Position numbers and translations under genes: made by a program. Below the pieces are notes generated by a model, which saw only the letters and a list, made by a program, of their open reading frames with translations, was not told the DNA's origin and made no database searches. Shown here in pieces: positions 1-3,409 of a stretch of DNA of 60,030 nucleotides. The DNA comes from Escherichia coli (GTDB lineage: Bacteria; Pseudomonadota; Gammaproteobacteria; Enterobacterales; Enterobacteriaceae). Within the stretch, counting starts at the first letter, position 1. Each line of letters opens with the position of its first letter. Location of the stretch: assembly GCF_003334405.1 (NCBI RefSeq), contig NZ_QOWM01000020.1; one strand, 5' to 3'.

Positions 1-898
1 GTGGCTTGCGCAGTGCGGGCTGACGGTGGAGCAACTGGCCAGACAGGTGGAGCCGGAATACACACCGGCGCGAAAAGCTCATCTTTATCACTGCGACCAC
101 CGGGGACTGCCGCTGGCGCTTATCAGCGAAGACGGCAATACGGCGTGGAGCGCGGAATATGATGAATGGGGCAACCAGCTTAATGAGGAGAACCCGCATC
201 ATGTGTATCAGCCGTACCGTCTGCCAGGGCAGCAGCATGATGAGGAATCAGGGCTGTACTATAACCGTCACCGGTACTACGATCCGTTGCAGGGGCGGTA
301 TATTACTCAGGACCCGATGGGGTTGAAAGGGGGATGGAATTTATATCAGTATCCTTTAAATCCACTACAACAAATTGACCCTATGGGATTATTGCAGACT
401 TGGGATGATGCCAGATCTGGAGCATGTACGGGGGGAGTTTGTGGTGTTCTTTCACGTATAATAGGACCAAGTAAATTTGATAGTACTGCAGATGCTGCGT
501 TAGATGCTTTGAAAGAAACGCAGAATAGATCTCTATGTAATGATATGGAATACTCTGGTATTGTCTGTAAAGATACTAATGGAAAATATTTTGCATCTAA
601 GGCAGAAACTGATAATTTAAGAAAGGAGTCATATCCTCTGAAAAGAAAATGTCCCACAGGTACAGATAGAGTTGCTGCTTATCATACTCACGGTGCAGAT
701 AGTCATGGCGATTATGTTGATGAATTTTTTTCAAGTAGCGATAAAAATCTTGTAAGAAGTAAAGATAATAATCTTGAAGCATTTTATCTCGCAACACCTG
801 ATGGACGATTTGAGGCGCTTAATAATAAAGGAGAATATATTTTTATCAGAAATAGTGTCCCGGGATTGAGTTCAGTATGCATACCGTATCATGATTAA
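1..898 (+). CDS. rhsD: Rhs-family protein, 3' portion (gene continues upstream of window): conserved Rhs core end followed by a ~168-aa variable C-terminal toxin domain
   Basis: Frame is open to base 1. Translation carries the conserved Rhs core-end block ([13 protein letters not shown]...[13 protein letters not shown], PxxxxDPxGL hallmark) then unrelated tip sequence. Locus assignment to rhsD is by synteny with ybbC/selU/allS. Confidence 0.75.
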
Positions 899-937
899 TT
901 TTAGTGCTTTTATTAGTGGGGCCTATAAGGAGATTCA

Positions 938-1306
938 ATGAAATATAGTTCAATATTTTCGATGCTTTCATTTTTTATACTATTTGCCTGTAATGAGACA
1001 GCTGTTTACGGTTCTGATGAAAACATTATTTTTATGAGGTATGTGGAAAAATTACATTTAGATAAATACTCTGTTAAAAATACGGTAAAAACTGAAACAA
1101 TGGCGATACAATTAGCTGAAATATATGTTAGGTATCGCTATGGCGAACGGATTGCAGAAGAAGAAAAACCATATTTAATTACGGAACAACCAGATAGTTG
1201 GGTTGTTGAGGGAGCAAAGTTACCTTATGAAGTTGCGGGTGGTGTATTTATTATAGAAATTAATAAGAAAAATGGATGTGTTTTGAATTTCCTACATAGT
1301 AAATAA
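938..1306 (+). CDS. ybbC: Rhs-associated immunity protein (YbbC-like), 122 aa, N-terminal signal-peptide-like segment
   Basis: Small ORF immediately 3' of the Rhs tip, the typical toxin-immunity arrangement; hydrophobic N-terminus [10 protein letters not shown]. Confidence 0.65.
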
Positions 1307-2016
1307 TGCTGGCGCTGATGGATGCGGATGGAAACATTGCGTGGAGCGGGGAGTATGATGAGTGGGGCAACCAGCTGAATGAAGAGAACCCGCATCACCT
1401 GCACCAGCCGTACCGGCTGCCGGGGCAGCAGTATGATAAGGAGTCGGGGCTGTACTACAACCGGAACCGGTACTACGATCCGTTGCAGGGGCGGTATATC
1501 ACTCAGGACCCGATAGGGCTGGAGGGGGGATGGAGTCTGTATGCGTATCCGCTGAATCCGGTGAATGGTATTGATCCATTAGGGTTAAGTCCCGCAGATG
1601 TAGCGCTAATAAGAAGAAAAGATCAACTAAACCATCAAAGAGCATGGGATATATTATCTGATACTTATGAAGATATGAAGAGATTAAATTTAGGTGGGAC
1701 TGATCAATTTTTCCATTGTATGGCATTTTGTCGAGTGTCTAAATTAAATGACGCTGGTGTTAGCCGATCGGCGAAAGGGCTGGGTTATGAAAAAGAGATT
1801 AGAGATTACGGGTTAAATCTGTTCGGTATGTACGGCAGAAAAGTAAAGCTATCCCATTCTGAAATGATTGAAGATAATAAAAAAGACTTGGCTGTAAATG
1901 ACCATGGGTTGACATGTCCATCAACAACAGATTGCTCAGATAGATGTAGTGATTATATTAATCCAGAGCATAAAAAAACGATAAAGGCTTTACAAGATGC
2001 TGGCTATCTCAAGTAA
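1306..2016 (+). CDS. Orphan Rhs C-terminal fragment (YlbH-like): Rhs core-end remnant plus a different ~142-aa toxin tip
   Basis: Repeats the Rhs core-end block ([14 protein letters not shown]...[13 protein letters not shown]...[13 protein letters not shown]) at ~85% nucleotide identity to 128-360, then diverges. ATG overlaps the ybbC stop. Confidence 0.7.
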
Positions 2017-2026
2017 TCTATCAAAG

Positions 2027-2257
2027 ATGATAATATTTATTTTTGCTATTATAATCATTGTTGTTTTATGCGTAATTACTTATCTTTATTTATACAAAGA
2101 TGAATCTCTTGTAAGTAAACATTACATAAACTATATGGCAATACCAGAAAATGATGGAGTTTTTACATGGCTCCCAGATTTTTTTCCGCACGTAGCGGTG
2201 GATATATCAATATACACAAATGTAGAAGATGATTATTTTTTTCTTATTTTTCCCTAA
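2027..2257 (+). CDS. Putative immunity protein for the orphan Rhs tip (YbbD-like), small membrane protein
   Basis: ORF directly after the orphan tip; strongly hydrophobic N-terminus (MIIFIFAIIIIVVLCVITYLYLY). Alternative start at 1997. Confidence 0.5.
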   Translation: MIIFIFAIIIIVVLCVITYLYLYKDESLVSKHYINYMAIPENDGVFTWLPDFFPHVAVDISIYTNVEDDYFFLIFP

Positions 2258-2289
2258 CAAATGATGATGGGGGTAGGTTTAAGAAAACA

Positions 2290-2487
2290 TTGACAGTGAG
2301 GGCCAGGGAACAAGTGGCGAAAATCGTATCAAAGAATGATCCAGATACAAAAAAAGTGTGGTGTAAATATGGTAAGATACCAGGGCAAGGGGATGGTGTA
2401 AACCTTTTTTTTGTTGGTGAAATTAATGTTACGCATTATTTTATAACAAATATTGGAGCTGGATTGCCTGATGCTTGTGCAGAGTAA
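2290..2487 (+). CDS. Hypothetical small protein (65 aa), possibly a remnant of another immunity/orphan cassette
   Basis: ORF only; AT-rich Rhs-accessory context; no recognisable motif. Confidence 0.2.
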   Translation: MTVRAREQVAKIVSKNDPDTKKVWCKYGKIPGQGDGVNLFFVGEINVTHYFITNIGAGLPDACAE

Positions 2488-3001
2488 TTGCTTGAATTAA
2501 GAGTCTATCCCATATCGAAGTCGTCAACTTCGTAGTGAGGAAAAGTAAAATTCCTGACTGAGAAAAGACATGTCGGCTATTGTGTAAAGCCATATAGCTC
2601 AGACGATGAATATCTACTCGTATTCAGTTGTTTATTGAGGGTGAGTTCCGACCCTGAAACAACAAATAAAATGAACAGTCAGAGAGTTTACATAGAATTG
2701 CACTGGTCTTTTACGATATCTGACATTGTGTAATACATATTCAGCCATGCATTAATTAAAATGTTACGTGTTTAATGTGAGTCCCTATCTGAAAATAAAT
2801 AATCCTTCCGGATTAAAATAAATTCTTGCCGGGAAAGAAAGAGGAAATAAACCATTAGCGGAAAACCAGCGGCACGCCAGGGTGACATGCCCCAGTACGG
2901 CGGCCCGATAGTCCAGGGTTCAGCGGGGGTACTGATAGTCGCGCCGACTGCATCGAGAACTCCATACAACTTTTTACGGAACGTCACCTGATAAAATTTG
3001 T

Positions 3002-3409
3002 TCAGTATCGTCTTTTGAGATTCTCAAGGTTATGGAGTAACCAGACAGAACGGACACCACTGTCGGAGATAAAAACCCCCTGTTTACGCAGCTCGTTGCT
3101 GGCCCGGTGCTGACCATGTGTCGGGAAAGCGACGGCGTAATCAACAACAGCCTGTTCAGTTGCCTCATCGGTACGGTTCTTAAGGTTAGGAGCGCGGCGA
3201 CTACGATTAATCTGCGCATCCACACCGCCTTCAGCGACCAGTTCGCGGTAACGATAAAACGTATCACGCGAAACGCCCATGATTTTACAGGCTTTTGATA
3301 CGTTGCTGAGTTCTTCAGCCAGATTGAGCAAACCGGCTTTGTGTTTGATGACGGGATTGGCAGTATGAAGCATGAGAGTTACCTCTTGTTTTGGATAAGG
3401 ATTCGACAC
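3002..3409 (-). pseudogene. ylbG: Truncated transposase-like HTH protein fragment (YlbG-like), degenerate IS remnant
   Basis: 135-aa ORF with an N-terminal HTH resembling transposase N-termini (GVSRDTFYRYRELVAEGGVDA ... ELRKQGVFISDSGVRSVW); the reading frame breaks and continues in other frames (2772-3267), with no intact catalytic domain. Confidence 0.5.

Follow-up and report, generated by a model that had tools for sequence, protein, structure and literature searches.

The gene ybbC lies directly 3' of rhsD near the start of a 60,030-nucleotide (nt) stretch of Escherichia coli DNA (the window; RefSeq assembly GCF_003334405.1, contig NZ_QOWM01000020.1), and its product is the predicted immunity protein for the C-terminal toxin tip of RhsD. 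The analysis presented here suggests, with a probability that we place at roughly 0.65, that YbbC is an exported and lipid-anchored protein which neutralizes an RhsD tip acting in the periplasm. Where an immunity protein resides is among the few strong hints that sequence offers on the site of action of its toxin; here it indicates the periplasm at each of the nine toxin loci examined and in 71% of the sampled immunity family.

E. coli, Salmonella, and plant pathogens commonly carry Rhs proteins with tips of the same family (Pfam DUF4329), and genome surveys routinely tabulate these tips as ribonucleases (RNases), a label traceable to a prediction. The gene, its family, and the signal keyword attached to it are already known; what is new with respect to the searchable literature is the clash between the RNase label and the location of the immunity proteins. 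If the proposal is true, a widespread effector family would need another functional label, the known range of the JAMM metalloprotease fold would grow by one cellular compartment and one substrate class, and a rare periplasm-acting example would be added to the Rhs toxins. The claim is directly testable with standard E. coli K-12 genetics.

The N-terminus of YbbC resembles a signal peptide

The first 3.5 kilobases (kb) of the window are 100% identical to E. coli K-12 MG1655, and the open reading frame (ORF) of 122 residues at 938–1306 on the forward strand, which ends in a TAA stop at 1304–1306, is ybbC of that strain (100% identity to WP_000877768.1, annotated as “YbbC/YhhH family protein”). 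The gene has a G+C content of 31% and is separated from the rhsD stop by 39 nt. Its product starts with a basic n-region containing K2, continues into an uncharged hydrophobic core (h-region) of 14 residues at positions 4–17, with a mean Kyte–Doolittle (KD) hydrophobicity of 2.49 over 12 residues, and reaches a Cys at position 18. The sequence-only reading of this stretch had proposed a secretion-signal-like N-terminus with a possible, atypical lipobox (LFAC), and both parts of that proposal were borne out. The N-terminus combines the features of a Sec signal (basic n-region, uncharged h-region of 7–15 residues, small residues at −1 and −3) with those of a lipoprotein precursor (lipobox preceding a Cys within positions 15–35, Lys or Arg among the first seven residues); the PROSITE PS00013 and G+LPP lipoprotein patterns both match, and only the Phe at −2 is atypical. 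The −3/−1 rule of signal peptidase I (SPase I) points to the same site, with L15 and A17 preceding C18 (LFA/C).

The rarity of these features was estimated with 20,000 shuffles of the residues of YbbC itself and with 20,000 random ORFs generated at the 31% G+C of the gene. An equal hydrophobicity was reached by 1.5% of the shuffles and 4.1% of the random ORFs, and the lipobox rule was satisfied by 0.09% and 0.24% of them, respectively. An AlphaFold2 model of YbbC, built from a 50-sequence alignment (mean per-residue confidence, pLDDT, of 85), exhibits an isolated helix at residues 4–16, an unstructured segment at 17–26, a less confident helix at 27–43, and, from residue 53, a core of two helices and four strands with pLDDT of 95–98 over most of its length. 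In this predicted layout, the order of segments is that expected of a signal peptide, a tether, and a folded domain. Export of YbbC is highly probable in our judgment, and we lean slightly toward a lipid anchor as well, “lipoprotein” being less certain than “exported” for this protein. A signal peptide on YbbC is by itself ordinary and already part of database annotation, as ybbC is listed in the “Signal peptide” category of a keyword table of the UniProt/DAVID type (PMC9501238).

Signal-like N-termini recur in the Imm-NTF2-2 family

The C-terminal portion of YbbC (residues 55–122) matches Pfam Imm-NTF2-2 (PF15631) over model positions 1–68 of 68, with an E-value of 1.9e-25; NCBIfam contained no model for YbbC. 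Sequence and profile searches of the PDB with YbbC returned nothing significant, and a Foldseek comparison of the YbbC model against the PDB returned nothing at E < 0.1, the NTF2-like structure 3ebt appearing at E = 1.6; the NTF2 assignment consequently rests on Pfam. Single-sequence, word-indexed protein searches recovered E. coli relatives and fragments only. When 1.84 billion cluster representatives (50% clustering) were searched exhaustively with HMMER, 256 Imm-NTF2-2 relatives were recovered, the best 150 of which were inspected; after dropping E. coli YbbC fragments and one protein of 2,096 residues, 130 representatives constituted the survey set.

A signal-like N-terminus was observed in 92 of these 130 representatives (71%), 24 having a lipobox together with a hydrophobic core and 68 another signal-like N-terminus. 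Among the remainder were 18 other forms, several of them borderline signal-like, and two N-terminally truncated sequences. As a control, the same hydrophobicity measure flagged three of 85 DUF4329 toxin sequences taken from similar samples. The signals of the Imm-NTF2-2 relatives are mutually unrelated in sequence, so that they have in common the presence of a signal but no particular residues. Judging from these sequences, a signal-like N-terminus appears to be a trait of the family.

The exact type of signal varies. The E. coli variant P0005 has LVAC at the lipobox, and P0042 and many Bacteroidota members likewise bear a lipobox, whereas the signal of the Rahnella homolog of YbbC lacks a Cys. 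Some homologs have long h-regions without a clear cleavage site, which is relevant to the possibility that the N-terminal stretch is an uncleaved signal anchor holding YbbC in the inner membrane in type II orientation, with its domain in the periplasm. The strong hydrophobicity of the YbbC h-region and the N-terminus of the neighboring YbbD, which resembles a true transmembrane anchor, would also fit such an anchor. We regard it as clearly improbable: with 14 residues, the h-region falls short of the length of a typical membrane span, the rules for SPase I and for lipoprotein signal peptidase (SPase II) both place cleavage between A17 and C18, and many homologs carry canonical lipoboxes or sites of the AxA type.

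The near-identical E. coli sequences P0003 and P0171–P0173, which derive from Logan assemblies, exhibit many S-to-F, H-to-Y, P-to-L, and A-to-V changes, a spectrum that suggests C-to-T-converted or damaged reads instead of true variants.

DUF4329 toxins are linked to immunity proteins with predicted export signals

We examined the linkage from both partners. In all nine independent DUF4329 loci (RhsD/YbbC, L007, L004, L009, L011, L012, L013, L014, and L015), comprising eight Rhs/YD-type tips and one standalone protein with a Sec signal, the downstream protein carries a signal peptide or a lipobox. Starting from immunity homologs, the upstream gene encodes an Rhs/YD-type protein with a terminal DUF4329 domain in L004/L005, L007 (an RhsB/YhhH-like pair), L009, and L011. 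Starting from the toxin, the DUF4329 protein of L012 stands alone, bears a Sec signal itself, and precedes an Imm-NTF2-2 member with a lipobox (IFAVGC); in L013 (Rahnella sp. PD12R), the gene after an Rhs tip encodes an Imm-NTF2-2 member that starts with a signal peptide; the downstream protein in L015 is an Imm-NTF2-2 member with FWGC; and that in L014 is an unrelated protein of 219 residues with a lipobox-like signal at its start. An Imm-NTF2-2 gene is located immediately 3' of the DUF4329 toxin in the window and in L004, L007, L009, L011, L012, L013, L015, and L022, and L002 and L008 hold orphan immunity homologs in apparent immunity arrays. Three DUF4329 proteins bear Sec signals of their own. 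A genome scan with enterobacterial toxin tips found three loci, in sequences titled as metagenome-assembled genomes, one with a tip 100% identical to that of RhsD and two with tips 52% identical to it. As far as the sequences indicate, the link between the DUF4329 toxin and an exported immunity protein is conserved. The sequence-only reading had argued that an exported immunity protein points to a periplasmic or envelope target, and the signal-like N-termini of most of the family, together with the nine of nine loci, lend that argument in silico support.

Two regions hold further immunity-like genes. In L013, a series of small genes (736–3217) lies 3' of the toxin tip and the immunity gene; it includes Imm58, DUF6258, and a YbbD_head protein and resembles a poly-immunity array with elements also present in the rhsD locus of K-12. 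In L021, a full-length Rhs protein within a type VI secretion system (T6SS) cluster has a different tip, with no Pfam match listed over it, and is followed by a protein of 194 residues (1601–2185) with a clear signal peptide (MKRFLFFLLAIFINFDAIAA), which would extend exported Rhs immunity proteins beyond the DUF4329 family.

The RhsD tip has a predicted JAMM fold

The RhsD tip matches Pfam DUF4329 (PF14220) with an E-value of 2.5e-37. In the alignment of DUF4329 tips, from which Logan-derived entries resembling C-to-T-converted reads were left out, E53, H98, H100, S114, and D117 are invariant, and the RhsD tip retains the whole E, H[ST]H, S, D motif. Sequence and profile searches of the PDB with the tip returned nothing significant. 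Its structural model exhibits a JAMM/MPN+ metalloprotease fold with JAMM isopeptidases as the closest matches, the fold-match scores being 8.6 for BRCC36, 8.5 for Pyrococcus JAMM1, 7.9 for AfJAMM, 7.5 for CBASS Cap3, 7.2 for the Rpn11 homolog of C. subterraneum, and 7.1 for both RadC and yeast Rpn11. At the level of the model, this fold confirms the Tox-JAB-2 assignment of Zhang et al. The same authors placed Tox-JAB-2 among nucleic-acid-targeting domains and proposed a nuclease role by analogy with RadC (PMC3482391), and later surveys give “RNase” for DUF4329 tips by citation and not by assay.

The N-terminus of RhsD is of the PAAR type, and the protein is devoid of hydrophobic segments (maximum KD19 of 0.89); nothing in it resembles a membrane-crossing domain. 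No T6SS genes adjoining rhsD were seen in the 13.5-kb K-12 stretch examined, and a homologous orphan module stands beside tssF/tssG/impA in L021/L022. Six Cys residues are conserved in enterobacterial tips (at 53% identity); in Rahnella, both C49 and C59 are missing. This pattern would fit, weakly, disulfides formed in an oxidizing compartment. Conserved disulfides were also considered as a family-wide mark of periplasmic action and were rejected, the pattern being restricted to the enterobacterial clade.

Proposed mode of action

From these observations we infer export, lipidation, outer-membrane sorting, neutralization by binding, a periplasmic site of action, and peptidase activity of the tip. 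The primary product of ybbC would be a precursor bearing a Sec-type signal peptide, which would be cleaved off before Cys18, most likely by the lipoprotein signal peptidase following lipidation. The +2 rule is an established sorting rule for E. coli lipoproteins, and the Asn at this position would make YbbC a substrate of the Lol pathway destined for the outer membrane, where it would reside in the inner leaflet. Residues 18–26 would then form a short flexible tether keeping the NTF2-like domain in the periplasm, where it would bind and block incoming tips of the RhsD/RhsB type. The tip, in turn, would not be the cytoplasmic RNase of its usual label but a Zn-dependent (iso)peptidase with an intact E...HxH...S..D site that attacks an envelope substrate. 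Inhibition of JAMM tips by YbbC in the periplasm would imply that the toxin acts there, and the periplasm is indeed the site that we consider probable.

One alternative preserves export and places the lethal target, nucleic acid, in the cytoplasm, such that YbbC would intercept the tip in transit through the periplasm before it crosses the inner membrane. The RNase label would suit such a target, but it derives from citation and not from an assay, RhsD lacks a hydrophobic translocation segment, some DUF4329 proteins carry their own Sec signals, and the top fold matches of the tip are isopeptidases. To our knowledge, the immunity proteins of characterized toxin–immunity systems also sit at the site of action of the toxin (the periplasm for Tsi1/Tsi3, Cmi, and Pim; the cytoplasm for immunities to nucleases). 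Interception therefore seems unlikely.

The activity of a periplasm-acting RhsD tip is a more tentative matter than its location. Cell-wall isopeptidase activity is a possibility that we hold with low confidence, and peptidoglycan or its linkage to Lpp as the substrate is a guess. In its broadest and equally speculative form, the proposal would make Tox-JAB-2/DUF4329 tips, including those of RhsD and RhsB, the first envelope-acting JAMM toxins, namely periplasmic Zn isopeptidases inhibited by mostly lipid-anchored NTF2-like proteins, with the “RNase” label being wrong; candidate bonds would be, for example, the peptidoglycan cross-link, the gamma-D-Glu–meso-diaminopimelate (mDAP) bond, and the Lpp–peptidoglycan link.

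Opposing observations and signal-less forms

Several observations weigh against the interpretation of YbbC as an exported lipoprotein that counters a periplasmic toxin. The strict lipobox [LVI][ASTVI][GAS]C fails on LFAC because of the Phe at −2, and the nearest paralog type, YhhH (the partner of an RhsB-like tip), exhibits a plausible SPase I signal and no lipobox, its N-terminus running through VSLFVFTYNTWA up to the predicted cut and continuing with QC (TWAQC). With the Rahnella signal devoid of Cys, the YhhH type leaves “exported” robust and “lipoprotein” plausible for YbbC yet unconserved in its closest relatives, and lipidation may accordingly be an unconserved property. Among the 130 surveyed representatives, 18 are domain-only proteins of about 75 residues without a signal; for one signal-less protein, P0050, no signal-coding ORF was found upstream in any frame, which indicates that some short signal-less forms may be real. 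In a survey of Salmonella (PMC10469887), the immunity proteins listed for DUF4329 Rhs effectors are “CdiI” entries without a signal. On the toxin side, Bacteroidota DUF4329 tips contain zero to two Cys residues. K-12 transposon mutants of ybbC are viable. Finally, the searchable literature contains no experiment on the localization of YbbC, no assay of the activity of a DUF4329 tip or of RhsD-CT, and no discussion of where Imm-NTF2-2 proteins are located.

Inspection of a second signal-less protein, P0048, revealed a different origin. It was found in two isolate assemblies, L021 and L022 (GCA_010506355.1 and GCA_010676005.1), whose tssF/tssG are ~79% identical to those of E. coli, which makes the host a different enterobacterium. 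The gene is located 156 nt 3' of a DUF4329 orphan, and just upstream of it another frame encodes MKFLLAIFLVSFCAFSSERGIISFTKDSGG. Between this signal ORF and the Imm-NTF2-2 ORF lies a poly-G tract, G10 in L021 (2989–2998) and G9 in L022 (2990–2998); dropping one G from the G9 tract (to G8) yields a continuous protein of 104 residues containing both signal and domain, and G11 would also restore the frame. It is this break that leads gene callers to report a signal-less protein of 73 residues. The signal-less form of P0048 is thus a frameshift artifact, which sequencing error could explain, or possibly the outcome of a slipped-strand on/off switch. The Salmonella entries might stem from the same problem.

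These cases bear on whether YbbC is exported at all, since its hydrophobic N-terminus could be a by-product of an AT-rich gene, or translation could start at an internal Met and give a cytoplasmic protein. About 4% of base-composition-matched random ORFs do reach the same hydrophobicity, some database entries start at M33, the next in-frame Met, and short signal-less members exist in the family. Against this, just 0.1–0.2% of the controls satisfy the lipobox rule, a strong ribosome-binding site is present at the first ATG only, M33 having no comparable Shine–Dalgarno site, and the entries starting at M33 are fragments from short contigs. Signal peptides of unrelated sequence moreover recur in distant homologs at the frequency given above, and one signal-less form is the frameshift artifact of P0048. 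Chance hydrophobicity and a wrong start codon were rejected on the basis of the shuffle and random-ORF controls and of the ribosome-binding site, and a cytoplasmic YbbC appears very improbable.

Comparison with known toxin–immunity systems

Zhang et al. (2012) paired Tox-JAB-2 with immunity proteins of Imm-NTF2 family 2 (PMC3482391), and YbbC (PF15631) and the RhsD tip (PF14220) represent this very pair. They described the immunity family as “E. coli only” and mentioned no export signal (PMC3482391), whereas 256 representatives, many of them from Bacteroidota-type loci, were recovered here. In their set, Imm65, the partner of the sister toxin Tox-JAB-1, was the only immunity protein with a lipobox (PMC3482391). 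The Imm65/Tox-JAB-1 pair of Bacteroidetes Rhs proteins likewise unites a JAB-fold Rhs tip with a lipobox-anchored immunity protein, although, by the description in that paper (PMC3482391), the toxin clade is different and the immunity family unrelated. The predicted lipobox of YbbC would contradict the status of Imm65 as the sole lipoprotein immunity, with a second JAB toxin clade sharing the property.

The export signal on the immunity protein is also a hallmark of the T6SS periplasmic effector–immunity pairs (Tse1/Tsi1, Tae4/Tai4, Tlde1/Tldi1, and Ssp/Rap), and YbbC exhibits a predicted one. In those pairs the toxins are cargo effectors of small size that adopt amidase, NlpC/P60, or L,D-transpeptidase folds, whereas here a predicted JAMM fold forms the tip of an Rhs cage protein. 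Characterized Rhs tips are mostly cytoplasmic nucleases, ADP-ribosyltransferases, and deaminases. Colicin M/Cmi and pesticin/Pim also involve periplasmic, membrane-tethered immunity; their folds and their Ton/Tol import are unrelated to the present system, so that the likeness is one of analogy only. Cmi and Pim protect from toxins that hit peptidoglycan or its precursors in the periplasm.

With respect to the JAMM/MPN+ isopeptidases (Rpn11, BRCC36, AMSH, archaeal JAMM1, and CBASS Cap3) and RadC, sequence identity to the tip amounts to 8–19%, and the HxH-to-S spacing is 10–13 residues in DUF4329 tips versus 7 in the canonical JAMM motif. No ubiquitin-like substrate is known in the periplasm. 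Zhang et al. reported that the residues of the tunnel for the ubiquitin-like (UBL) tail are not conserved (PMC3482391).

Genomic context of ybbC

The features of the ybbC region are collected in Table 1. The ORF starting at 26 matches Rhs core models (NCBIfam RHS_core and Rhs_assc_core, Pfam RHS) over its first ~122 residues. According to RefSeq, ybbC is followed by an orphan Rhs core-end with its tip, the split ybbD, ylbG, mnmH, and the all genes.

Table 1. Features of the rhsD–ybbC region, in window coordinates
Feature	Position	Strand	Remarks
rhsD 3' end (Rhs core end and toxin tip)	1–898	+	100% identical to K-12 rhsD; stop at 896–898
RhsD C-terminal toxin tip, DUF4329 = Tox-JAB-2, predicted JAMM/MPN+-like fold	392–895	+	168 residues after the DPMGL demarcation motif
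Shine–Dalgarno AAGGAG	927–932	+	5 nt 5' of the ybbC ATG; read from sequence
ybbC, 122-residue predicted immunity protein	938–1306 (stop included)	+	Pfam Imm-NTF2-2
Predicted signal peptide, residues 1–17 (n-region MK, h-region, lipobox L15-F16-A17)	938–988	+	PROSITE PS00013, G+LPP
Cys18 codon TGT, predicted lipidation site and predicted first mature residue; +2 = Asn	989–991	+	
Imm-NTF2-2 domain, residues 55–122	1100–1303	+	Pfam PF15631
Orphan Rhs core-end and second toxin tip (ylbH), outside the YbbC module	1306–2016	+	NCBIfam and Pfam Rhs core matches; RefSeq: partial pseudogene
ybbD, second immunity-like gene, two pieces (1997–2257 and 2290–2487)	1997–2487	+	NF011298 (163 residues), positions 1–85 and 99–163
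ylbG	3002–3409	−	Truncated helix-turn-helix/transposase-like pseudogene

The ybbC stop and the ATG of the ylbH ORF share one base (TAATG). The ylbH tip contains several Cys residues, and its only Pfam match is a weak one to serum amyloid A (E = 0.0013). The N-terminus of ybbD, MIIFIFAIIIIVVLCVITYLYLY, resembles a transmembrane anchor, which would make the second immunity-like protein of the locus membrane-targeted as well. The ylbG pseudogene stands between the Rhs element and mnmH and may mark the edge of an accessory region. In a TraDIS-Xpress screen, transposon insertions in ybbC raised susceptibility to trimethoprim, the gene being listed together with ldcA, wbbK, and waaS (PMC8767339), and polar effects may contribute to this phenotype.
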